From a virus (lineage: Duplodnaviria > Heunggongvirae > Uroviricota > Caudoviricetes), in the IMG/VR virus record IMGVR_UViG_2531839586_000008: a stretch of DNA of 17,425 nt, one strand, 5' to 3'. Positions 322-17,425 of the stretch are shown piece after piece. Under the pieces are notes generated by a model that was not told where the DNA came from, made no database searches, and saw only the letters and a program-made list of their open reading frames with translations. Position numbers and translations under genes: made by a program. The stretch's first letter is position 1. Each line of letters starts with the position of its first letter.

Positions 322-443
322 CTCACGCGCATATTAACGAGAGCCTTTCAGTAAGCGAGCCTGAGAAATGCCGTTATAGGTGGCGACCTCTCTCGGGCGG
401 CTTTTCTGTGAGACAGGCTCACTTTCTAAAAGGTAAAGACGCT

Positions 444-968
444 ATGAATAATCATTCAGTTATTCCAGCCTTCGACTTCCGAGAAATGGTGCAAGCCAAA
501 AACGGAGAGGTCGTTACCACATCCAGAAAAATTGCCAAGTACTTCGGCAAGCGACACGGTGATGTTCTCAGGAAAATCGAGCAGGTTAAGGCTGATTGCT
601 CGCGTGAGTTTAGCCAACGCAATTTTGCGTCGGCTGATTATATCGATGAGCAGGGCAAGGTTCGCCCGATGTACAGCCTGACGAAAGATGGCTGGATCAT
701 GGTTGTGATGGGGTTCACCGGGAAAGCTGCTGCGGCAATCAAGGAGAGCTATATCGCAGCATTCAACTGGATGGCAGAACAACTGAGCCGCCGCATGGCA
801 ATTGGCGAAGAAATGCAGCACCGCTACGCCATCAAAGAAACACGCTCAAAGCTGAAAGGTACGATCGGCAGTCGGTTAATGAACGAACGGAAGAAAGAGA
901 AGCGTGTCCTGGCTGTCGAGCATGAATACATCTTGCAGGTGACACAGCCTGAACTGCTGATTAATTGA
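444..968 (+). CDS. Rha-family phage regulatory protein (antirepressor-like)
   Basis: 174-aa ORF from the ATG at 444, with an AAGG-containing stretch (428-432) about 11 nt upstream. Sequence VVTTSRKIAKYFGKRHGDVLRKIE...MYSLTKDGWIMVVMGFTGKAAAAIKESYIAAFNWM matches the Phage_pRha domain pattern. The 294 start offered by the ORF track probably lies in the IS end or junction. Confidence 0.75.
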   Translation: MNNHSVIPAFDFREMVQAKNGEVVTTSRKIAKYFGKRHGDVLRKIEQVKADCSREFSQRNFASADYIDEQGKVRPMYSLTKDGWIMVVMGFTGKAAAAIKESYIAAFNWMAEQLSRRMAIGEEMQHRYAIKETRSKLKGTIGSRLMNERKKEKRVLAVEHEYILQVTQPELLIN

Positions 969-1270
969 AGATGTCATTACAAAGCCTATCTACGGGGGGC
1001 TTGATAATGGCTTATACCCTGCACGGGATAACTTAACTGATATCCCTTTTAACGGATAAAGGTATTCAAGCCTGACACATCATGCGCTGTATCGTCGCCG
1101 TATTCCCGCATTAACCATGACCGTAGCACGACGGGGAATTCCTTCTGCGGGAGGGTGCGGGAATAATCAAAAACGATGCACACCGGGTTATTAACGCGTC
1201 AACTGAACGCGGGGTTGCTCTTCATGTCAGCCAGTCCGGTGCAGGGGTAGAAGAAACCGGACGTTATGGT

Positions 1271-1681
1271 TTAGTGTGGAAACATTTGTGATGTGCTCTG
1301 TATGTTTTCAGTAAAGAGTAATGAATTATCAAAGGCATAGTAATATCTTTTTTGTTCGTGGATATTTGTAACCCACCGAAAAACTCCTGCTTTAGCAAGG
1401 TTTCTTCTGTATTCCTGAAATGTGATCTCTCTGGATTTCAGCTTATTAGAGGTCGTTTCTATAAGATGCCTATCCTTTGAAAATTTGACAGACACAATGT
1501 TTTTTAGGCCCTTTAATAACACTGTATTATCATTTTTTAATACAATATGAACATTCTCTGTGGCTAAATAGTAAATGTAATGTGAGACATTATGACGTTT
1601 TAGCTCAGAATAAAACCATTGATAGTTTAAATCGTTTCGAACTTTATCAAATATTTGTTTAAAAATGACTACCTGATCCAT
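1271..1681 (-). CDS. DUF1398-family prophage protein (YdfO/YbcV-like), 136 aa
   Basis: Minus-strand ORF. Start chosen at the ATG (MDQVV...) that has a GGAAGG Shine-Dalgarno 7 nt upstream, rather than the upstream GTG at 1723. The region is markedly AT-rich compared with flanking phage DNA. Length and sequence resemble the E. coli cryptic-prophage proteins YdfO/YbcV (recalled, not searched). Confidence 0.7.
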
Positions 1682-1739
1682 AGATAAACCTTCCATGTGA
1701 TATGAGGGGGGCGTAGTCTGCACGATTATCTAAATTGCT

Positions 1740-1973
1740 TCAATCTGGTCTGATCTGTTTTCTGAGCAATTCAGTAATGTCACTCTTTTCTTTGTTTGCT
1801 TCAGGAGAAACTCTTTTTTCTGAGCACAGTCTCCGGCGGCAGGCTTCAATGACCCAGGCTGAGAAATTCCCGGACCCTTTTTGATCAAGAGCGATGTTAA
1901 TTTGTTCAATCATTTGGTTAGGAAAGCGGATGTTGCGGGTTGTTGTTCTGCGGGTTCTGTTCTTCGTTGACAT
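1740..1973 (-). CDS. DUF3950-family small protein with ribbon-helix-helix-like core (YnfO/YlcI-like), 77 aa
   Basis: Minus-strand ORF MSTKNRTRRTTTRNIRFPNQMIEQINIALDQKGSGNFSAWVIEACRRRL... The basic N-terminal tail followed by a beta-strand/helix/helix pattern is typical of RHH (CopG/Arc-type) DNA-binding proteins. It sits immediately next to cos/Nu1, as ynfO/ylcI sit next to nohA/nohD in E. coli K-12 cryptic prophages. Confidence 0.7.
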   Translation of the reverse strand: MSTKNRTRRTTTRNIRFPNQMIEQINIALDQKGSGNFSAWVIEACRRRLCSEKRVSPEANKEKSDITELLRKQIRPD

Positions 1974-2172
1974 GAGGTTGCCCTGTATTCAGTGTCACTG
2001 ATTTGTATTGTCTGAAGTTGTTTTTACGTTAAGTTGATGCAGATCAATTAATACGATACCTGCGTCATAATTGATTATTTGACGTGGTTTGATGGCGTAG
2101 ATGCACGTTGTGACATGCAGATGATAATTATTATCATTTTGCGGATCCTTTCCGGCGATCCGACAGGTTACG

Positions 2173-2184
2173 GGGCGGCGACCT
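2173..2184 (+). other. cosN, the 12-nt cohesive-end sequence GGGCGGCGACCT (terminase nicking site)
   Basis: Exact match to the lambda left cohesive end, preceded by ...CCGACAGGTTACG as at the lambda right end, and located about 190 bp upstream of Nu1 as in lambda. Confidence 0.85.
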
Positions 2185-2220
2185 CTCGGGTTTTCGCTAT
2201 TTATGAAAATTTTCCGGTTT

Positions 2221-2340
2221 AAGGCGTTTCCGTTCTTCTTCGTCGTAACTTAATGTTTTTATTTAAAATACCCCCTGAAAAGAAAGGAAACGACAGGTGC
2301 TGAAAGCGAGCTTTTTGGCCTCTGTCGTTTCCTTTCTCTG
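2221..2340 (+). other. cosB terminase small-subunit binding region: R3 (2225-2238), AT-rich I1/IHF region (about 2244-2276), R2 (2281-2296, inverted), R1 (2322-2338)
   Basis: Three copies of the CGTTTCC(g/t)TTCT R-element. R2 is inverted relative to R3 and R1, and an AT-rich stretch lies between R3 and R2, matching lambda cosB organisation. Confidence 0.75.
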
Positions 2341-2361
2341 TTTTTGTCCGTGGAATGAACA

Positions 2362-2881
2362 ATGGAAGTCAACAAAAAGCAGCTGGCTGACATTTTCGGC
2401 GCGAGTATCCGTACCATTCAGAACTGGCAGGAACAGGGAATGCCCGTTCTGCGAGGCGGTGGCAAGGGTAATGAGGTGCTTTATGACTCTGCCGCCGTCA
2501 TAAAATGGTATGCCGAAAGGGATGCTGAAATTGAGAACGAAAAGCTGCGCCGGGAGGTTGAAGAACTGCGGCAGGCCAGCGAGGCAGATCTCCAGCCAGG
2601 GACTATTGAGTACGAACGCCATCGACTTACGCGTGCGCAGGCCGACGCACAGGAACTGAAGAATGCCAGAGACTCCGCTGAAGTGGTGGAAACCGCATTC
2701 TGTACTTTCGTGTTGTCGCGGATCGCAGGTGAAATTGCCAGTATTCTCGACGGGATCCCCCTGTCGGTGCAGCGGCGTTTTCCGGAACTGGAAAACCGAC
2801 ATGTTGATTTCCTGAAACGGGATATCATCAAAGCCATGAACAAAGCAGCCGCGCTGGATGAACTGATACCGGGGTTGCTGA

Positions 2882-2907
<26 letters not shown>
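2362..2907 (+). CDS. nu1: Terminase small subunit Nu1
   Basis: 181-aa ORF MEVNKKQLADIFGASIRTIQNWQEQGMPVLRGGGKGNEVLYDSAAVIKWYAERD..., recognisable as lambda gpNu1 (winged-HTH N-terminus). Sits directly downstream of cosB. Confidence 0.95.
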
Positions 2908-6581
<3,674 letters not shown>

Positions 6582-6601
<20 letters not shown>

Positions 6602-7897
6602 TCTCCCGCATATTGCCAGTATGGCCTTTAATGAGCCGCTGATGCTTGAACCCGCCTATGCGCGGGTTTTCTTTTGTGCGCTTGCAGGCCAGCTTGGGAT
6701 CAGCCGCCTGACGGATGCGGTGTCCGGTGACAGCCTGACTGCCCAGGAGACACTCGCGACGCTGGCGTTATCCGGTGATGATGACGGACCACGACAGGCC
6801 CGCAGTTATCAGGTCATGAACGGCATCGCCGTGCTGTCGGTTTCCGGCACGCTGGTCAGCCGGACGCGGGCGCTGCAGCCGTACTCGGGGATGACCGGTT
6901 ACAACGGCATTATCGCCCGTCTGCAACAGGCTGCCAGCGACCCGATGGTGGACGGCATTCTGCTCGATATGGACACGCCAGGCGGAATGGTGGCGGGGGC
7001 ATTTGACTGCGCTGACATCATCGCCCGTGTGCGTGACATAAAACCGGTATGGGCGCTGGCCAACGACATGAACTGCAGTGCAGGTCAGCTGCTTGCCAGT
7101 GCCGCCTCCCGGCGTCTGGTCACGCAGACCGCCCGGACAGGCTCCATCGGCGTCATGATGGCTCACAGTAATTACGGTGCTGCCCTGGAGAAACAGGGCG
7201 TGGAAATCACGCTGATTTACAGCGGCAGCCATAAGGTGGATGGCAATCCCTACAGCCATCTTCCGGATGACGTCCGGGAGACACTGCAGTCCCGGATGGA
7301 CGCAACCCGCCAGATGTTTGCGCAGAAGGTGTCGGCATATACCGGCCTGTCTGTGCAGGCTGTGCTGGATACCGAGGCTGCAGTGTACAGCGGTCAGGAG
7401 GCCATTGATGCCGGACTGGCTGATGAACTTGTTAACAGCACCGATGCGATCACCGTCATGCGTGATGCACTGGATGCCTAAATCCCGTCTCTCAGGAGGG
7501 CGAATGACCAAAGAGACTCAATCAACAACTGTTTCAGCCACTGCTTCGCAGCTGACGTTACTGACGTGGTGCCAGCGACGGAGGGCGAAAACGCCAGCGC
7601 GGCGCAGCCGGACGTGAACGCGCAGATCACGCTGCGGTTGCGGCAGAAAACAGCCGCATTATGGGGATCCTCAACTGTGAGGAGGCTCACGGACGCGAAG
7701 AACAGGCGCGCGTGCTGGCAGAAACCCCCGGTATGACCGTGGAAACGGCCCGCCGCATTCTGGCCGCAGCACCACAGAGTGCACAGGCGCGCAGTGACAC
7801 TGCGCTGGATCGTCTGATGCAGGGGGCACCGGCACCGCTGGCTGCAGGTAACCCGGCATCTGATGCCGTTAACGATTTGCTGAACACACCAGTGTAA
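6582..7897 (+). pseudogene. C: Head maturation protease C with nested scaffold Nu3, frame-disrupted
   Basis: GTG start 20 nt inside the B 3' end (VTAELRNLPHIASMAFNEPL...). Frame 0 stops at 7479-7481 (...VMRDALDA*). Continuation KSRLSGGRMTKETQSTTVSATASQ is in frame 1, and the C-terminus MGILNCEEAHGREEQARVLAETPG...NDLLNTPV is in frame 2, ending at 7897. Confidence 0.7.
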
Positions 7898-7906
7898 GGG
7901 ATGTTT

Positions 7907-8239
7907 ATGACGAGCAAAGAAACCTTTACCCATTACCAGCCGCTGGGCAACAGTGACCCGGCACATACGGCAACCGCGCCCGGCGGATTGAGTGCGAAAG
8001 CGCCTGCAATGACCCCGCTGATGCTGGACACCTCCACCCGTAAGCTGGTTGCGTGGGATGGCACCACCGACGGTACTGCCGTTGGCATTCTGGCGGTTGA
8101 TGCTGACCAGACCAGCACCACGCTGACGTTCTACAAGTCCGGCACGTTCCGTTATGAGGATGTGCTCTGGCCGGAGGCTGCCAGCGACGAGACGAAAAAA
8201 CGGACCGCGTTTGCCGGAACGGCAATCAGCATCGTTTAA
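7907..8239 (+). CDS. D: Head decoration protein D, 110 aa
   Basis: [46 protein letters not shown]...AISIV, recognisable as lambda gpD. Start ATG at 7907 with AAGGG upstream. Confidence 0.9.
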
Positions 8240-8260
8240 CCTTACCCTTCATCACTAAAG

Positions 8261-8281
8261 GCCGCCTGTGCGGCTTTTTTT
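8261..8281 (+). terminator. GC hairpin plus T-run between D and E (GCCGC-CTGT-GCGGC-TTTTTTT); terminator-like, probably read through in the late operon
   Basis: 5-bp GC stem with a 4-nt loop followed by 7 T, directly seen in the sequence. Its function as a terminator is not established. Confidence 0.3.
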
Positions 8282-8294
8282 ACGGGATTTTTTT

Positions 8295-9320
8295 ATGTCG
8301 ATGTACACAACCGCCCAGCTGCTGGCGGCAAATGAGCAGAAATTTAAGTTTGATCCGCTGTTTCTGCGTCTCTTTTTCCGTGAGAGCTATCCCTTCACCA
8401 CGGAGAAAGTCTATCTCTCACAAATTCCGGGACTGGTAAACATGGCGCTGTACGTTTCGCCGATTGTTTCCGGTGAGGTTATCCGCTCCCGTGGCGGCTC
8501 CACCTCTGAATTTACACCGGGATATGTCAAGCCGAAGCATGAGGTGAATCCGCAGATGACCCTGCGTCGCCTGCCGGATGAAGATCCGCAGAATCTGGCG
8601 GACCCGGCTTACCGCCGCCGTCGCATCATTATGCAGAACATGCGTGACGAAGAGCTGGCCATTGCCCAGGTCGAAGAGATGCAGGCAGTTTCTGCCGTGC
8701 TTAAGGGCAAATACACCATGACCGGTGAAGCTTTCGATCCGGTTGAGGTGGATATGGGCCGCAGTGCGGCCAACAACATCACGCAGTCCGGCGGCACGGA
8801 GTGGAGCAAGCGTGACAAGTCCACGTATGACCCGACCGACGATATCGAAGCCTACGCGCTGAACGCCAGCGGAGTGGTGAATATCATCGTGTTTGATCCG
8901 AAAGGCTGGGCGCTGTTCCGTTCCTTCAAAGCCGTCAAGGAGAAGCTGGATACCCGTCGCGGCTCTAATTCCGAGCTGGAGACAGCGGTAAAAGACCTGG
9001 GCGAAGCGGTGTCCTATAAGGGGATGTATGGCGATACGGCGATCGTCGTGTATTCCGGACAGTACGTGGAAAACGACGTCAAAAAGAACTTCCTTCCGGA
9101 CAACACGATGGTGCTGGGGAACACTCAGGCACGCGGTCTGCGCACCTATGGCTGCATTCAGGATGCGGACGCACAGCGCGAAGGTATTAACGCCTCTGCC
9201 CGCTACCCGAAAAACTGGGTGACCACCGGCGATCCGGCGCGTGAGTTCACCATGATTCAGTCAGCACCGCTGATGCTGCTGGCTGATCCTGATGCGTTCG
9301 TGTCCGTACAACTGGCGTAA
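8295..9320 (+). CDS. E: Major capsid protein E, 341 aa
   Basis: ORF from MSMYTTAQLLAANEQKFKFDPLFLRLFFRESYPFTTEKVYLSQIPG... to ...FVSVQLA, recognisable as lambda gpE. The ORF track's upstream start at 8268 is rejected. Confidence 0.95.
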   Translation: MSMYTTAQLLAANEQKFKFDPLFLRLFFRESYPFTTEKVYLSQIPGLVNMALYVSPIVSGEVIRSRGGSTSEFTPGYVKPKHEVNPQMTLRRLPDEDPQNLADPAYRRRRIIMQNMRDEELAIAQVEEMQAVSAVLKGKYTMTGEAFDPVEVDMGRSAANNITQSGGTEWSKRDKSTYDPTDDIEAYALNASGVVNIIVFDPKGWALFRSFKAVKEKLDTRRGSNSELETAVKDLGEAVSYKGMYGDTAIVVYSGQYVENDVKKNFLPDNTMVLGNTQARGLRTYGCIQDADAQREGINASARYPKNWVTTGDPAREFTMIQSAPLMLLADPDAFVSVQLA

Positions 9321-9361
9321 TCATGGCCCTTCGGGGCCATTTTCTCTCTGTGGAGGAGTCT

Positions 9362-9754
9362 ATGACGAAAGATGAACTGATTGCCCGTCTTCAGGTGCTG
9401 GGTGAGCAACTGAACCGTGATGTCAGCCTGACGGGGACGAAAGAAGAACTGGTGCTCCGTGTGGCAGAGCTGGAAGAGGAGCTTGATGACACGGATGACG
9501 CTGCCGGTCAGGACACATCTGTCAGCCCGGAAAATGCGCTGACCGGACATGAAAATGAGGTGGTATCAGCGCAGCCGGATACCGTGATTGATACGGCTGC
9601 TCTGGTCACGGTCGTGGCACTGGTGACGCTGCATACTGATGCACTTCACGCCACGCGGGATGAGCCTGTGGCATTTGTGCTGCCGGGAACGGCGTTTCGT
9701 GTCTCTGCCGGTGTGGCAGCCGAAATGACAGACGGCCTGGCCAGAATGCAATAA
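9362..9754 (+). CDS. FI: DNA-packaging accessory protein FI, 130 aa
   Basis: ORF MTKDELIARLQVLGEQLNRDVSLTGTKEELVLRVAELEEELDD..., with GGAGG RBS upstream. Preceded by the hairpin ATGGCCC-TTCG-GGGCCAT at 9323-9340. Confidence 0.85.
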   Translation: MTKDELIARLQVLGEQLNRDVSLTGTKEELVLRVAELEEELDDTDDAAGQDTSVSPENALTGHENEVVSAQPDTVIDTAALVTVVALVTLHTDALHATRDEPVAFVLPGTAFRVSAGVAAEMTDGLARMQ

Positions 9755-9765
9755 CGGGAGGCGCT

Positions 9766-10116
9766 GTGGCTGATTCGATAACCTGTTCGATGCTGCCATT
9801 GCCCGCGCCGATGAAACGATACGCGGGTACATGGGAACGTCAGCCACCATGACATCCGGTGAGCGTCGGTGCGGTGATACGTGGTGTTTTTGATGACCCT
9901 GAAAATATCAGCTATGCCGGACAGGGCGTGCGCGTTGAAGGCTCCAGCCCGTCCCTGTTTGTCCGGACTGATGATGTGCGGCAGCTGCGGCGCGGCGACA
10001 CGCTGACCATCGGTGAGGAAAACTTCTGGATAGACCGGATTTCGCCGGATGATGGCGGAAGCTGTCATCTCTGGCTTGGGCGGGGCGTACCGCCTGCCGT
10101 TAACCGTCGCCGCTGA
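9766..10116 (+). pseudogene. FII: Head-tail connector protein FII, frame-disrupted near the N-terminus
   Basis: GTG at 9766 follows a GGGAGG RBS, but that frame hits TGA after about 28 codons. The FII-like N-terminal peptide DNLFDAAIARADETIRGYMGTSAT is in another frame, and the conserved C-terminal 85 aa (...GAVIRGVFDDPENISYAGQGVRVEG...NRRR) is in the 9859-10116 frame. Confidence 0.65.
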
Positions 10117-10127
10117 AAGGGGGATGT

Positions 10128-10706
10128 ATGGCCATAAAAGGTCTTGAGCAGGCCGTTGAAAACCTCAGCCGTATCAGCAAAACGGCGGTGCCTGGTGCCG
10201 CCGCAATGACCATTAACCGCGTTGCGTCATCCGCGATATCGCAGTCTGCGTCACAGGTTGCCCGTGAGACAAAGGTACGCCGGAAACTGGTAAAGGAAAG
10301 GGCCAGGCTGAAAAGGGCCACGGTCAAAAATCCGCAGGCCAGAATCAGGGTTAACCGGGGGGATTTGCCCGTAATCAAGCTGGGTAACGCGCGGGTTGTC
10401 CTTTCGCGCCGCAGGCGTCGTAAAAAGGGGCAGCGTTCATCCCTGAAAGGTGGCGGCAGCGTGCTTGTGGTGGGAAACCGTCGTATTCCCGGCGCGTTTA
10501 TTCAGCAACTGAAAAATGGCCGGTGGCATGTCATGCAGCGTGTGGCCGGGAAAAACCGTTACCCCATTGATGTGGTGAAAATCCCGATGGCGGTGCCGCT
10601 TACCACGGCGTTTAAACAGAATATTGAACGGATACGGCGTGAATGTCTTCCGAAAGAGCTGGGCTATGCGCTGCAGCATCAACTGAGAATGGTAATAAAG
10701 CGATGA
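10128..10706 (+). CDS. Z: Tail completion protein Z, 192 aa
   Basis: Intact ORF MAIKGLEQAVENLSRISKTAVPGAAAMTINRVASSAISQSASQVARETKVRRKL... with GGGGGA RBS. Position and sequence match lambda gpZ. Confidence 0.9.
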   Translation: MAIKGLEQAVENLSRISKTAVPGAAAMTINRVASSAISQSASQVARETKVRRKLVKERARLKRATVKNPQARIRVNRGDLPVIKLGNARVVLSRRRRRKKGQRSSLKGGGSVLVVGNRRIPGAFIQQLKNGRWHVMQRVAGKNRYPIDVVKIPMAVPLTTAFKQNIERIRRECLPKELGYALQHQLRMVIKR

Positions 10707-11098
10707 AACATACTGAACTCCGTGCAGCCGTACTGGATGCACTGGAGAAGCATGACACCGGGGCGACGCTTTTTGATGGTCGCCCCGCTGTTTTTGATGA
10801 GGCGGATTTTCCGGCAATTGCCGTTTATCTCACCGGCGCTGAATACACGGGCGAAGAGCTGGACAGCGATACATGGCAGGCGGAGCTGCATATTGAAGTT
10901 TTCCTGCCTGCTCAGGTGCCGGATTCAGAGCTGGATTCGTGGATGGAGTCCCGGATTTATCCGGTGATGAGTGATATCCCGGCACTGTCAGATTTGATCA
11001 CCAGTATGGTGGCCAGCGGCTATGACTACCGGCGCGACGATGATGCGGGCCTGTGGAGTTCAGCCGATCTGACTTATGTCATTACCTATGAAATGTGA
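10703..11098 (+). CDS. U: Tail terminator protein U, 131 aa
   Basis: [48 protein letters not shown]...ITYEM, with ATGA overlap with the Z stop. The ORF track's upstream start at 10643 is rejected. Confidence 0.9.
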
Positions 11099-11105
11099 GG
11101 ACGCT

Positions 11106-11825
11106 ATGCCTGTACCAAATCCTGTAATGCCGGTGAAAGGTGCCGGGACCACCCTGTGGGTTTATAAGGGAACGGTGACCCTTATGCGAACCCGCTTTCA
11201 GACGTTGACTGGTCGCGTCTGGCTAAAGTTAAAGACCTGACGCCCGGCGAACTGACCGCTGAGTCCTATGACGACAGCTATCTCGATGATGAAGATGCAG
11301 ACTGGACTGCGACCGGGCAGGGGCAGAAATCTGCCGGAGATACCAGCTTCACGCTGGCGTGGATGCCCGGAGAGCAGGGGCAGCAGGCGCTGCTGGCGTG
11401 GTTTAATGAAGGCGATACCCGTGCCTATAAAATCCGCTTCCCGAACGGCACGGTCGATGTGTTCCGTGGCTGGGTCAGCAGTATCGGTAAGGCGGTGACG
11501 GCGAAGGAAGTGATCACCCGACGGTGAAGTCACCAAGTGGGCGTCCGTCATGGCAGAAGATCGCAGACGGTACGCGGCAACCGGATGACGTGACGCCTGC
11601 CAGCCTCGGTGGTGAAAGGGCAGAGCACCACGCTGACCGTGGCATTCCAGCCGGAGGGCAACGACAAGAGCTTCCGTGCGGTGTCGCGGATAAAACAAAA
11701 GCACCGTGTCGGTCAGTGGTATGACCATCACCGTGAAGGGTTGCTGCAGGAAGGTCAACATTCCGGTTGTATCCGGTAATGGTGAGTTTGCTGCGGTTGC
11801 AGAAATCACCGTCACCGCCAGTTAA
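11106..11825 (+). pseudogene. V: Major tail tube protein V, heavily frame-disrupted
   Basis: ATG at 11106 gives [22 protein letters not shown], then the frame is lost (stop at 11238-11240). The V-like peptide [115 protein letters not shown] is in another frame and stops at 11525-11527. The C-terminal part is further scrambled up to the TAA at 11823-11825. No single ORF covers V. Confidence 0.7.
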
Positions 11826-11840
11826 TCCGGAGAGTCAGCG

Positions 11841-12262
11841 ATGTTCCTGAAAACCGAATCATTTGAACATAACGGTGTGACCGTCACGCTTTCTGAACTG
11901 TCAGCCCTGCAGCGTATTGAGCATCTCGCCCTGATGAAACGGCAGGCAGAACAGGCGGAGTCAGTCTCAATCGACAGGTGAGCGTGGAAGATCTCGTCAG
12001 AACCGGCGCTTTTCTGGTGGCGATGTCCCTGTGGCATAGCCATCCGCAGAAGACAAAGATGCCGTCCATGAATGAAGCCGTTAAACAAATTGAGCAGGAA
12101 GTGCTTACCACCTGGCCCACAGAGGCAATTGCTCAGGCTGAAAATGTGGTAATGCGTCTGTCCGGTATGTCTGAGTTTGTTGTGAATGATGCACCTGAAC
12201 AGGCAGATGACGCCGGGCCAGCAGAGCCTGTTTCTGCGGGAAAGTGTTCGACGGTGAGCTGA
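11841..12262 (+). pseudogene. G: Tail assembly chaperone G, frame-disrupted about 45 codons in
   Basis: ATG at 11841 gives MFLKTESFEHNGVTVTLSELSALQRIEHLALMKRQAEQAESVSIDR, then TGA at 11979-11981. The conserved remainder VEDLVRTGAFLVAMSLWHSHPQKTKMPSMNEAVKQIEQEVLTTWPTEA...AGKCSTVS is in the 11978-12262 frame. Confidence 0.65.
12238..12244 (+). other. G-T programmed -1 ribosomal frameshift slippery heptamer GGGAAAG
   Basis: GGGAAAG lies 16 nt upstream of the G stop, with the T reading frame open in the -1 frame from this point, as established for lambda G/G-T. Confidence 0.6.
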
Positions 12263-12678
12263 GTTTTGCCCTGAAACTGGCGCGTGAGATGGGGCGACCC
12301 GACTGGCGTGCCATGCTTGCCGGGATGTCATCCACGGAGTATGCCGACTGGCACCGCTTTTACAGTACCCATTATTTTCATGATGTTCTGCTGGATATGC
12401 ACTTTTCCGGGCTGACGTACACCGTACTCAGCCTGTTTTTCAGCGATCCGGATATGCATCCGCTGGATTTCAGTTTGCTGAACCGGCGTGAGGCTGACGA
12501 AGAGCCTGAAGATGATGTGCTGATGCAGAAAGCGGCAGGGCTTGCCGGAGGTGTCCGCTTTGGCCCGGACGGGAATGAAGTTATCCCTACTTCCCCGGAT
12601 GTGGCGGACATGACGGAGGATGACGTAATGCTGATGACAGTATCAGAAGGGATCGCAGGAGGAGTCCGGTATGGCTGA
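12244..12678 (+). CDS. T: T frame of the G-T tail assembly chaperone (expressed only as a G-T fusion via -1 frameshift)
   Basis: Open frame VFDGELSFALKLAREMGRPDWRAMLAGMSSTEYADWHRFYSTHYFHDVLLDMHFSGLTYTV... in the -1 frame relative to the G C-terminus, ending with an 8-nt overlap with the H start. Confidence 0.7.
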   Translation: MFDGELSFALKLAREMGRPDWRAMLAGMSSTEYADWHRFYSTHYFHDVLLDMHFSGLTYTVLSLFFSDPDMHPLDFSLLNRREADEEPEDDVLMQKAAGLAGGVRFGPDGNEVIPTSPDVADMTEDDVMLMTVSEGIAGGVRYG

Positions 12679-15234
12679 ACCGGTAGGCGATCTGGTCGTT
12701 GATTTGAGTCTGGATGCGGCCAGATTTGACGAGCAGATGGCCAGAGTCAGGCGTCATTTTTCCGATACGGAAAGTGATGCGAAAAAAACAGCGGCAGTCG
12801 TTGAACAGTCAATGAACCGGCAGGCGCTGGCTGCACAGAAAGCGGGGATTTCCGTCGGACAGTATAAAGCCGCCATGCGTATGCTGCCTGCACAGTTCAC
12901 CGACGTGGCCACGCAGCTTGCAGGCGGGCAAAGTCCGTGGCTGATCCTGCTGCAACAGGGGGGTCAGGTGAAGGACTCCTTCGGCGGGATGATCCCCATG
13001 TTCCGGGGGCTTGCCGGTGCGATCACCCTGCCGATGGTGGGGGCCACCTCGCTGGCGGTGGCGACCGGTGCGCTGGCGTATGCCTGGTATCAGGGCAACT
13101 CAACCCTGTCCGATTTCAACAAAACGCTGGTCCTTTCCGGCAATCAGGCGGGACTGACGGCAGATCGTATGCTGGTCCTGTCCAGAGCCGGGCAGGCGGC
13201 AGGGCTGACGTTTAACCAGACCAGCGAGTCACTAGCCTGGTAATGCCGGTGTGGGTGGCAGTTGCGTCCATCAGCCAGAGTGTGGCGCGTTTCTCCTCTG
13301 CATCCGGCGTGGAGGTGGACAAGGTCGCTGAAGCCTTCGGGAAGCTGACCACTGACCCGACGTCGGGCTGACGCGATGGCACGCAGTTCCATAACGTGAC
13401 GGCGGAGCAGATTGCGTATGTTGCTCAGTTGCAGCGTTCCGGCGATGAAGCCGGGGCATTGCAGGCGGCGAACGAGGCCGCAACGAAAGGGTTTGATGAC
13501 CAGACCCGCCGCCTGAAAGAGAACATGGGCACGCTGGAGACCTGGGCAGACAGGACAGCACGGGCATTCAAATCCATGTGGGATTCGGTGCTGGATATTG
13601 GTCGCCCGGACACTGCCCAGGGAATGCTGGAGAAAGCAGAAAAGGCTTTTGATGAGGCGGACAAAAAATGGCAGTGGTATCAGAGCCGGAGCCACCGGCG
13701 CGGTAAAACCTCAGCATTTCTTGCCAATCTCCGGGGAGCATGGGAGGACAGAGCGAATGCGCAACTTGGGCTTTCAGCCGCCACGTTGCAGGCCGATCTT
13801 GAAAAGGCCAGAGAGATGGCAGCAAAGGACTGGGCCGAGTCTGAGGCATCACGGCTGAAATATACCGAAGAGGCGCAGAAGGCTTACGAACGGCTGCAGA
13901 CGCCGCTGGAGAAATATACCGCCCGTCAGGAAGAACTGAACAAGGCACTGAAAGACGGGAAAATCCTGCAGGCGGATTACAACACGCTGATGGCGGCGGC
14001 GAAAAAGGATTATGAAGCGACGCTGAAAAAGCCGAAACAGTCCGGCGTGAAAGTGTCTGCGGGCGATCGTCAGGAAGACAGTGCTCATGCTGCCCTGCTG
14101 ACGCTTCAGGCAGAACTCCGGACGCTGGAGAAGCATGCCGGAGCAAATGAGAAAATCAGCCAGCAGCGCCGGGATTTGTGGAAGGCGGAGAGTCAGTTCG
14201 CGGTACTGGAGGAGGCGGCGCAACGTCGCCAGCTGTCTGCACAGGAGAAATCCCTGCTGGCGCATAAAGATGAGACGCTGGAGTACAAACGCCAGCTGGC
14301 TGCACTTGGCGACAAGGTTACGTATCAGGAGCGCCTGAACGCGCTGGCGCAGCAGGCGGATAAATTCGCACAGCAGCAACGGGCAAAACGGGCCGCCATT
14401 GATGCGAAAAGCCGGGGGCTGACTGACCGGCAGGCAGAACGGGAAGCCACGGAACAGCGCCTGAAGGAACAGTATGGCGATAATCCGCTGGCGCTGAATA
14501 ACGTCATGTCAGAGCAGAAAAAGACCTGGGCGGCTGAAGACCAGCTTCGCGGGAACTGGATGGCAGGCCTGAAGTCCGGCTGGAGTGAGTGGGAAGAGAG
14601 CGCCACGGACAGTATGTCGCAGGTAAAAAGTGCAGCCACGCAGACCTTTGATGGTATTGCACAGAATATGGCGGCGATGCTGACCGGCAGTGAGCAGAAC
14701 TGGCGCAGCTTCACCCGTTCCGTGCTGTCCATGATGACAGAAATTCTGCTTAAGCAGGCAATGGTGGGGATTGTCGGGAGTATCGGCAGCGCCATTGGCG
14801 GAGCTGTTGGTGGCGGAGCATCCGCGTCAGGCGGTACAGCCATTCAGGCCGCTGCGGCGAAATTCCATTTTGCGACCGGGGGATTTACGGGAACCGGCGG
14901 CAAATATGAGCCAGCGGGGATTGTTCACCGTGGTGAGTTTGTCTTCACGAAGGAGGCAACCAGCCGGATTGGCGTGGGGAATCTTTACCGGCTGATGCGC
15001 GGCTATGCCACCGGCGGTTATGTCGGTACACCGGGCGGCATGGCAGACAGCCGGTCGCAGGCGTCCGGGACGTTTGAGCAGAATAACCATGTGGTGATTA
15101 ACAACGACGGCACGAACGGGCAGATAGGTCCGGCTGCTCTGAAGGCGGTGTATGACATGGCCCGCAAGGGTGCCCGTGATGAAATTCAGACACAGATGCG
15201 TGATGGTGGCCTGTTCTCCGGAGGTGGACGATGA
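12671..15234 (+). pseudogene. H: Tail tape measure protein H, frame-disrupted between the N-terminal 190 aa and the C-terminal 612 aa
   Basis: ORF 12671-13243 (MAEPVGDLVVDLSLDAARFDEQMARVRRHF...) stops at 13241-13243. An H-like peptide ASISQSVARFSSASGVEVDKVAEAFGKLTTDPTSG is in a third frame, and the remainder (13396-15234, ...GGLFSGGGR) is in another. Coiled-coil and Gly-rich composition is typical of tape measure proteins. Confidence 0.75.
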
Positions 15235-15560
15235 AGACCTTCCGCTGGAAAGTGAAACCCGGTATGGATGTGGCTTCGGTCCCTTCTGTAAGAAAGGTGC
15301 GCTTTGGTGATGGCTATTCCCAGCGAGCGCCTGCCGGGCTGAATGCCAACCTGAAAACGTACAGCGTGACGCTTTCTGTCCCCCGTGAGGAGGCCACGGT
15401 ACTGGAGTCGTTTCTGGAAGAGCACGGGGGCTGGAAATCCTTTCTGTGGACGCCGCCTTATGAGTGGCGGCAGATAAAGGTGACCTGCGCAAAATGGTCG
15501 TCGCGGGTCAGTATGCTGCGTGTTGAGTTCAGCGCAGAGTTTGAACAGGTGGTGAACTGA
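15231..15560 (+). CDS. M: Tail tip assembly protein M, 109 aa
   Basis: Intact ORF MKTFRWKVKPGMDVASVPSVRKVRFGDGYSQRAPAGLNANLKTYSVTLSVPREEATVLESFLEEHGGWKSFLWTPPYEWRQIKVTC...; ATGA overlap with the H stop. Confidence 0.9.
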   Translation: MKTFRWKVKPGMDVASVPSVRKVRFGDGYSQRAPAGLNANLKTYSVTLSVPREEATVLESFLEEHGGWKSFLWTPPYEWRQIKVTCAKWSSRVSMLRVEFSAEFEQVVN

Positions 15561-16253
15561 TGCAGGATATCCGGCAGGAAACACTGAATGAATGCACCCG
15601 TGCGGAGCAGTCGGCCAGCGTGGTGCTCTGGGAAATCGACCTGACAGAGGTCGGTGGAGAACGTTATTTTTTCTGTAATGAGCAGAACGAAAAAGGTGAG
15701 CCGGTCACCTGGCAGGGGCGACAGTATCAGCCGTATCCCATTCAGGGGAGCGGTTTTGAACTGAATGGCAAAGGCACCAGTACGCGCCCCACGCTGACGG
15801 TTTCTAACCTGTACGGCATGATCACCGGGATGGCGGAAGATCTGCAGAGTCTGGTCGGCGGAACGGTGGTCCGGCGTAAGGTTTACGCCCGTTTCTGGAT
15901 GCGGTGAACTTCGTCAACGGAAACAGAGCCGATCCGGAGCAGGAGGTGATCAGCCGCTGGCGCATGAGCAGTGCAGCGAACTGAGCGCGGTGAGTGCCTC
16001 CTTTGTACTGTCCACGCCGACTGAAACGGATGGCGCTGTTTTTCCGGGACGTATCATGCTGGCCAACACCTGCACCTGGACCTATCGCGGCGATGAGTGC
16101 GGTTATAGCGGTCCGGCTGTCGCGGATGAATATGACCAGCCAACGTCCGATATCACGAAGGATAAATGCAGCAAATGCCTGAGCGGTTGTAAGTTCCGCA
16201 ATAACGTCGGCAACTTTGGCGGCTTCCTTTCCATTAACAAACTTTCGCAGTAA
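15560..16253 (+). pseudogene. L: Tail tip assembly protein L, frame-disrupted in the middle
   Basis: ORF 15560-15907 (MQDIRQETLNECTRAEQSASVVLWEIDLTEVGGERYFFCNEQNEKGEPVTWQGRQYQPYPIQGSGF...RRKVYARF) stops prematurely. The C-terminal part (...SASFVLSTPTETDGAVFPGRIMLANTCTWTYRGDECGYSGP...SINKLSQ) is in the 15990-16253 frame. Confidence 0.7.
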
Positions 16254-16257
16254 TCCC

Positions 16258-17001
16258 ATGACACAGACAGAATCAGCGATTCTGGCGCACGCCCGGCGAT
16301 GTGCGCCAGCGGAGTCGTGCGGCTTCGTGGTGAGAACGCCGGAGGGGGAAAGATATTTTCCCTGCGTGAATATCTCCGGTGAGCCGGAGGCGTATTTCCG
16401 GATGTCGCCGGAGGACTGGCTGCAGGCAGAAATGCAGGGTGAGATTGTGGCGCTGGTCCACAGCCACCCCGGTGGTCTGCCCTGGCTGAGTGAGGCCGAC
16501 CGGCGGCTGCAGGTGCAGAGTGATTTGCCGTGGTGGCTGGTCTGCCGGGGGACGATTCATAAATTCCGCTGTGTGCCGCATCTCACCGGGCGGCGCTTTG
16601 AGCACGGGGTGACGGACTGTTACACGCTGTTCCGGGACGCTTACCATCTGGCGGGAATTGAGATGCCGGATTTTCATCGCGGGGATAACTGGTGGCGTCA
16701 CGGTCAGAATCTCTATCTGGATAATCTGGAGGCCACAGGGCTGTATCAGGTGCCGTTGTCAGCGGCGCAGCCGGGCGATGTGCTGCTGTGCTGTTTTGGT
16801 TCATCGGTGCCGAATCATGCCGCCATTTACTGTGGTGACGGCGAGCTGCTGCACCATATTCCTGAACAACTGAGCAAACGAGAGAGGTATACCGACAAAT
16901 GGCAGCGACGCACACACTCCCTCTGGCGTCACCGGGCATGGCACGCATCTGCCTTTACGGGGATTTGCAACGATTTGGCCGCCGCATCGACCTTCGTGTG
17001 A
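16258..17001 (+). CDS. K: Tail tip assembly protein K (JAB/MPN metalloprotease-like N-domain plus NlpC/P60-like C-domain), 247 aa
   Basis: ORF MTQTESAILAHARRCAPAESCGFVV... contains the JAMM-type motif HSHPGGLPWLSEAD (HxHx7Sx2D) and a downstream Cys/His-containing NlpC/P60-like region (DCYTLF...). Position between L and I matches lambda. Confidence 0.85.
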   Translation: MTQTESAILAHARRCAPAESCGFVVRTPEGERYFPCVNISGEPEAYFRMSPEDWLQAEMQGEIVALVHSHPGGLPWLSEADRRLQVQSDLPWWLVCRGTIHKFRCVPHLTGRRFEHGVTDCYTLFRDAYHLAGIEMPDFHRGDNWWRHGQNLYLDNLEATGLYQVPLSAAQPGDVLLCCFGSSVPNHAAIYCGDGELLHHIPEQLSKRERYTDKWQRRTHSLWRHRAWHASAFTGICNDLAAASTFV

Positions 17002-17425
17002 AAACGGGGGCCGAAGCCATCCGGGCGCTGGCCATGCAGATCCCGGCGTTTCGTCAGAAGCTGAGCGACGGCTGGTATCAGGTACGCATTGCCGGGCGTG
17101 ATGCAGGTAAAACCGAATTGTCTGCCCGTCTTAATGAGCCGCTGGAAAATGGTGCCGTGATCCATATCGTGCCGCGTCTGGCAGGAGCCAAAAGTGGCGG
17201 TGTGTTTCAGGCTGTGCTGGGGGCGGCTGTTATGGCGGTTGCTATATGGATGCCGGGGGTAGGAATTATGGCGAGTAATCTGCTGTTTTCTCTCGGTGCC
17301 AGTATGGTGCTCGGTGGTGTGGCGCAGATGCTGGCACCGAAAGCCAGAACTCCCCGTACACAGACAACGGATAACGGCAAACAGAACACCTATTTCTCCT
17401 CACTGGATAACATGGTTGCCCAGGG
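16899..17425 (+). CDS. I: Tail tip assembly protein I, N-terminal part (3' end outside window)
   Basis: ATG at 16899 opens a frame with no stop to the window end (MAATHTLPLASPGMARICLYGDLQRFGRRIDLRVKTGAEAIRAL...). It overlaps the K 3' end in a different frame, as in lambda. Not in the ORF track because no stop lies within the window. Confidence 0.8.
   Translation, partial: MAATHTLPLASPGMARICLYGDLQRFGRRIDLRVKTGAEAIRALAMQIPAFRQKLSDGWYQVRIAGRDAGKTELSARLNEPLENGAVIHIVPRLAGAKSGGVFQAVLGAAVMAVAIWMPGVGIMASNLLFSLGASMVLGGVAQMLAPKARTPRTQTTDNGKQNTYFSSLDNMVAQ

Follow-up and report, generated by a model that had tools for sequence, protein, structure and literature searches.

Background

A close described counterpart of the gene considered here is gene H of phage lambda, which encodes the tail tape-measure protein gpH. 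The closest described counterparts of the defect found in it belong to genome assembly, where collapsed repeats and false frameshifts induced by indels are recognised classes of error (review PMC13577107).

The locus lies in a window of 17,425 nt, the whole stretch of DNA that was analysed, which is the entire draft contig AQBW01000016.1 (GCA_000358615.2) of the ETEC isolate Escherichia coli p0305293.15. Gene H is interrupted in this window, and the original prediction, made from the sequence of the window, was that small indels had damaged the gene. Comparison of the window with two resolved prophages, with other public genomes and with a second isolate of the same patient leaves little doubt that the interruption arose in the consensus of a draft assembly of short reads, through the collapse of a repeat.

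Methods

Source of the contig

The isolate p0305293.15 appears to belong to the sequencing project described in PMC4462620, as judged from the naming of the isolates and from the neighbouring accession AQBX, which corresponds to P0305293_2, an ST443, CS5/CS6 ETEC isolate from Bangladesh (PMC5469772, supplement). According to the project paper, 300-bp inserts were sequenced as HiSeq 2000 paired-end reads and assembled with the Celera Assembler at >200x coverage, and the population was clonal in 10 of 12 patients (PMC4462620). The window was matched to its contig by exact look-up of the encoded proteins. The deposited record and the window were checked and found to be equally long, and the window contains no letters other than ACGT, so that the deletions must already have been present in the deposited record. 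Stripping of ambiguity codes or Ns downstream of deposition, which was considered as a source of missing bases, is ruled out on the same grounds, as the record also has 17,425 nt and the window only ACGT.

Reference copies of the repeat

Two lambdoid prophages from the complete genome of another strain, ETEC TW10722, were used as proxies for the two copies of the repeat, and are hereafter referred to as copy A (locus L003; NZ_CP035841.1, ~615.5-633.7 kb), which is the best complete-genome match to the window, and copy B (locus L006; ~4,908.7-4,924.4 kb). The late regions of the two copies are ~96.6% identical, with 531 of the 15,712 aligned columns (3.4%) discordant between A and B. The part of the window homologous to both copies extends over 1811..17425 (+ strand), while the part at 322..1810 (+ strand) is homologous to copy A only and served as an internal control.

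Results and discussion

Organisation of gene H in the contig

Gene H (12671..15234, + strand) sits between T and M in the order G, T, H, M, L, as in lambda. On the basis of its sequence it is a lambda-family tail tape-measure gene (gpH), with Pfam TMP_2 (PF06791) matched on its N-terminal fragment of 190 aa and Tape_meas_lam_C (PF09718) on its C-terminal fragment of 612 aa. The GGGAAAG slippery heptamer of the programmed -1 frameshift of G/T is intact at 12238-12244, at the overlap of the two genes. The full-length identity of the window gene to annotated intact tape-measure genes (2580 nt, 859 aa) is 98.3-98.9%.

An intact gene of this type would be expected to form one uninterrupted ORF of ~850-860 codons, and the deposited H consists instead of three ORFs, all on the + strand. 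The N-terminal fragment (12671..13243; ENG54869.1) starts with ATG, encodes 190 aa and stops at the TAA at 13241-13243; a middle ORF of 42 aa (13243..13371), corresponding to H residues ~203-237, is closed by the TGA at 13369-13371; and the C-terminal fragment (13396..15234; ENG54871.1) starts with GTG and encodes 612 aa. The interruption, its stop codons and the ORF coordinates had been described correctly in the original prediction, as judged from the ORF list and the sequence, and the recognisable H peptide noted after the first stop is confirmed by the middle ORF, which contains ASISQSVARFSSASGVEVDKVAEAFGKLTTDPTSG, a stretch of 35 residues identical in lambda gpH and in copy B. This peptide had been assigned to a third frame; it in fact shares the frame of the C-terminal ORF (+2 relative to 12671).

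The span of the gene, 2564 nt, had been considered close to the length of H in lambda. Lambda H does have 2562 nt, but the appropriate comparison is with the nearest relatives, >98% identical to the window gene and 2580 nt long; since the window gene is 16 nt short of this length, its near match to the lambda value is coincidental. Global alignment to two intact relatives places the entire shortfall of 16 nt within about 13233-13384, with all gaps being deletions in the window and the remainder of the gene near-identical (13 substitutions relative to strain 120899). The many tiny deletions thus found on alignment bear out the view that small indels, and not one large deletion, underlie the interruption.

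The missing bases fall into two zones. In the first (13233..13261, + strand) 13 nt are absent, each at a column at which copies A and B differ, and the frame is thereby shifted; the TAA that ends the N-terminal fragment is a product of this shift. In the second (13367..13383, + strand) single bases are absent at 13367, 13372 and 13383, all three at A/B SNP columns (A/G, A/G and T/C, respectively); the net shift of frame is zero, and the TGA at 13369-13371 arises within the 17 nt that are read out of frame from the first to the last of the three. Restoration of the 16 nt yields an ORF of 859 aa, 99.9% identical to the protein of copy A and 97.9% identical to that of copy B.

Missing bases and the differences between the two copies

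In the interrupted region of H (13225-13390), 23 of the 182 columns are discordant between A and B, and all 16 missing bases fall on these (hypergeometric P = 7e-18); the other discordant columns carry the A base in three cases and the B base in four, and the concordant columns are retained without exception (159/159). The three discordant columns retained inside the first drop zone are of type A, and the next three, just downstream at 13265-13269, are of type B. A four-way alignment of 13190-13410 shows the same arrangement, with each deletion of the window at a column that differs between A and B and with A-like or B-like stretches elsewhere. The claim that H is damaged in the organism is thus contradicted by the positions of its own lesions, 16 of 16 missing bases being located at columns at which two prophage copies differ.

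The pattern extends over the whole contig. Relative to copy A, the window shows 91 gap bases, all of them deletions, in discrete clusters and without any insertion; copy B is as close to the window as copy A, with 98.2% identity. An apparent cluster of 30 deleted nt relative to copy A at 17238-17282 was rejected as damage, being merely the copy B allele. Within 1811-17425, 61 bases are missing relative to both copies and none is inserted. In a MAFFT alignment made blind to the hypothesis, 33 gaps fell on discordant columns (33/531, 6.2%) and 28 on columns at which the two copies agree (28/15,181, 0.18%; Fisher P = 8e-33). A dynamic-programming alignment in which either allele is allowed at each column placed 60 of the 61 missing bases on discordant columns, as against 2-9 of 61 when the same procedure was applied to simulated mosaics carrying 61 random deletions. 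The one remaining base, at 16251, is missing at a column at which the proxies A and B agree.

The retained sequence is a patchwork of the two copies. A, B and the window are all identical in 15,139 of the 15,712 aligned columns; at 435 discordant columns the window follows one copy or the other (219 of type A and 216 of type B), changing between them 69 times, and 60 discordant columns are dropped. The dropped columns are grouped in runs, and for 41 of the 60 the two flanks are of opposite type, compared with a baseline of 24%. At the level of single bases, a mixture of two resolved repeat copies therefore accounts for the contig, and from how fully A and B together do so, p0305293.15 very probably carries both prophages itself.

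The ends of the contig were also examined. One end lies within IS100 and the other at a point of strong divergence between copies A and B, as is typical of a contig bounded by repeats. On the left, 322-1810 is specific to copy A, and the right end follows copy B; the left flank of one prophage is thus linked in this contig to right-hand sequence of the second. In the last 425 nt (17000-17425), copy B is followed at essentially all of the ~100 discordant columns. Positions 1-322 comprise the 3' end of istB and the IS100 terminus and are 100% identical to the IS100 of TW10722. The IS100 junction at 322 lies upstream of a gene for a Rha-family regulator, at an insertion site shared with the complete genome 120899, and the IS100 of TW10722 is located elsewhere, in the lysis gene. 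A different element, ISCro1 (IS66-family), interrupts the tail gene Z in the otherwise near-identical ETEC prophages of 120899, 103605, 204446, 504237 and ETEC-2265 (9011-11626 of locus L001, NZ_CP025916.1); Z is free of it in the window and in TW10722.

Other genes of the contig with the same defect

Eight other genes carry the dropped-column defect, seven of them split or truncated and one, the terminase gene A, altered in frame. The defect sites are 3951-3985, 5365-5434, 7477-7630, 9732-9867, 11170, 11520-11750, 11962, 15891-15965 and 16251, and all except 16251 are on A/B-discordant columns. In terminase A, three 1-nt drops produce a short out-of-frame stretch and a protein of 640 aa in place of 641. 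The portal gene B is split (125 + 418 aa), the protease gene C is truncated (299 aa), FI encodes 130 aa, FII is truncated (85 aa), the tail tube gene V is fragmented, and G and L are split (46 + 94 aa and 115 + 65 aa, respectively).

Some of these products have entered the protein databases. The 640-aa terminase (2882-4804; WP_149007943.1) and a chimeric K (16258-17001; ENG54875.1, WP_001665280.1), which also has a UniRef100 entry, are each encoded on this one contig only; the 130-aa FI (9362-9754; WP_001665269.1) is encoded on two sister contigs only.

Occurrence in other genomes and in a sister isolate

Among 5,426 complete E. coli genomes, which contain 5,092 places homologous to 13200-13400, the window's version of this segment was not found once, nor was it present in the phage records (88) or plasmid records (47) in which a homologous stretch occurs. 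Full-length matches to this segment reach at most ~91% identity and measure 217 nt, against 201 nt in the window. An exact match to the aberrant 43-mer was found in neither the genome-contig nor the viral-contig collection; a search of ~15 billion proteins placed the exact 190-aa protein on a single contig, and both H fragments (ENG54869.1 and ENG54871.1) are confined to AQBW01000016.1. The possibility that the variable segment of H represents a third, natural allele was rejected, as no better match was offered by the 5,092 places in complete E. coli genomes or by the phage and plasmid collections.

Only one further contig encodes the 130-aa FI of the window, namely AQBX01000050.1, from isolate p0305293.2 of the same patient; this contig has 6,970 nt and covers 8881-15816 of the window. 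In this assembly G is intact and H is intact with 859 aa, both Pfam domains (TMP_2 and Tape_meas_lam_C) being matched. A single long ORF on resequencing, which the original prediction had named as the result that would speak against an interrupted gene, is in effect provided by the p0305293.2 assembly, although with 859 codons and not the 853 expected. Across the variable segment, the H of p0305293.2 is likewise chimeric between A and B.

The two contigs differ by 58 substitutions and 34 gap bases. Every base of AQBX01000050.1 is accounted for by A or B, and 50 discordant columns are resolved in it opposite to the window; 34 columns are dropped in the window only. A difference of ~1.3% (gaps counted) over 7 kb is unexpected within one patient, and the two contigs are therefore best read, on the assumption of clonality, as two consensus mixtures of the same prophages. 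Independent assemblies of what is presumably the same clone thus differ in the mixture that they present. Ten dropped columns, in FI/FII and V, are common to both contigs. Such shared drops (FI, FII and 4 of V) are expected of a deterministic artefact, and taken alone are compatible with a real variant at these sites as well. AQBX01000050.1 (L010) thus has artefacts of this type too, at 482-1236 and 2226-2962, with FI of 130 aa, FII of 85 aa and V split (156 + 96 aa). The like pattern in eight other genes of the window and the intact H of the sister isolate both argue against gene damage in the organism.

Alternative explanations

The lesions might be thought to reflect a genuine pseudogene, that is, a decaying prophage whose H carries small frameshifting deletions in the living strain. 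The interruptions are already in the deposited record, several genes of the contig are broken, and E. coli often carries defective lambdoid prophages. Decay, however, gives no cause for 60 of 61 deletions to be located on the 3.4% of columns that are discordant between two paralogues. Private substitutions, at which the window follows neither A nor B, number only three in the 15,615 bases (15.6 kb) of 1811-17425, with no insertions, beside 61 deleted bases, and no deletion is present in the 1.5 kb at 322-1810, for which copy B offers no homologue. The fragments of H are on one contig and are shared with no other public genome, and the independent assembly of the sister isolate, with its intact H, gives the lesion no support. 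We therefore regard a genuine pseudogene as very unlikely.

Errors of the sequencing chemistry, such as homopolymer under-calls and poor read tails, at low coverage of a single prophage copy would be compatible with clusters of deletions only, ~2 kb apart, as the pattern appeared before the second copy was compared. Base-calling errors in read tails or at low coverage were indeed the first idea, abandoned once the deletions were found to track paralogue differences. Such errors would not follow A/B-discordant columns, and on testing the error positions proved not to be independent of the differences between the paralogues. Homopolymer runs of at least three bases would hold just 17 of the 61 dropped bases, and the project reports Illumina sequencing at >200x (PMC4462620). 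Chemistry errors are accordingly a highly improbable source of the deletions.

A real A/B recombinant with deletions left by error-prone heteroduplex repair at mismatches would fit the enrichment of drop zones at A-to-B transitions, where the joints would lie, but is scarcely credible, because 69 switches in 15.6 kb are implausible as a recombination history, the sister isolate has a different patchwork, and known mismatch repair excises and resynthesises from the other strand and does not delete the mismatched base. A biological origin would thus need an unknown process, and it is hardly to be believed that the deletions are real and that some unknown mutagenic processing of heteroduplexes removes precisely the mismatched bases during exchange between two co-resident prophages and so inactivates the recombinants.

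A collapsed repeat as the probable source of the interruption

The placement of the missing bases, the A/B patchwork, the uniqueness of the window's version and the intact H of the sister isolate were all observed directly, and together they are best explained by the collapse of a repeat during assembly. A prophage repeat of >15 kb cannot be spanned by paired-end reads with inserts of 300 bp, and the assembler would have merged the reads of both prophages into a single contig of 17.4 kb. Wherever one copy dominated the pile-up, its base would have entered the consensus, and the A/B patchwork would have arisen in this manner. In short zones in which the copies were evenly matched, often at switches between A and B, the disagreeing column would have been omitted from the consensus. 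Each omitted column would mimic a deletion of 1 nt, and sixteen of them in H would suffice to break the reading frame. We infer the step in which tied columns are dropped by the assembler; a description of such column-omitting behaviour for the assembler concerned was not found in the literature.

There is no sign that p0305293.15 carries a broken tape-measure gene, and the interruption is almost certainly not a real feature of the organism. The gene under the artefact is an ordinary lambda-family tape-measure gene, with nothing new to offer on phage biology, and the value of the case is in database hygiene and not in biology. Artefactual proteins of this origin are now present in reference collections (WP_001665280.1, WP_149007943.1, WP_001665269.1, ENG54869.1 and ENG54871.1), and counts of defective prophages or pseudogenes derived from such drafts would be inflated. 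Lesions that consist of deletions only, each at a column that differs between paralogues, provide a diagnostic for false pseudogenes in drafts of genomes with multiple prophages.

Comparison with known systems

The intact H genes of ETEC TW10722 (WP_000840178.1 in copy A and WP_000840312.1 in copy B) are the closest to the window, as every retained base of its H matches A or B, and the window gene differs from them in being without 16 A/B-differing columns within 13233-13383. Lambda gpH (NP_040595.1, 853 aa) shares the gene order and the Pfam families, and the restored protein is 92% identical to it over the full length; the alleles described here, however, have 859 aa, and the deposited version is split into 190, 42 and 612 aa. 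With the known errors from collapsed repeats, the present case shares near-identical repeats that exceed the read length and whose reads are merged, a contig bounded by the edges of the repeat, a chimeric consensus and false frameshifts; it differs from them in its unusually clean signature, in that the discordant columns are omitted and not called as one allele or as N, with the result that all of the errors are deletions.
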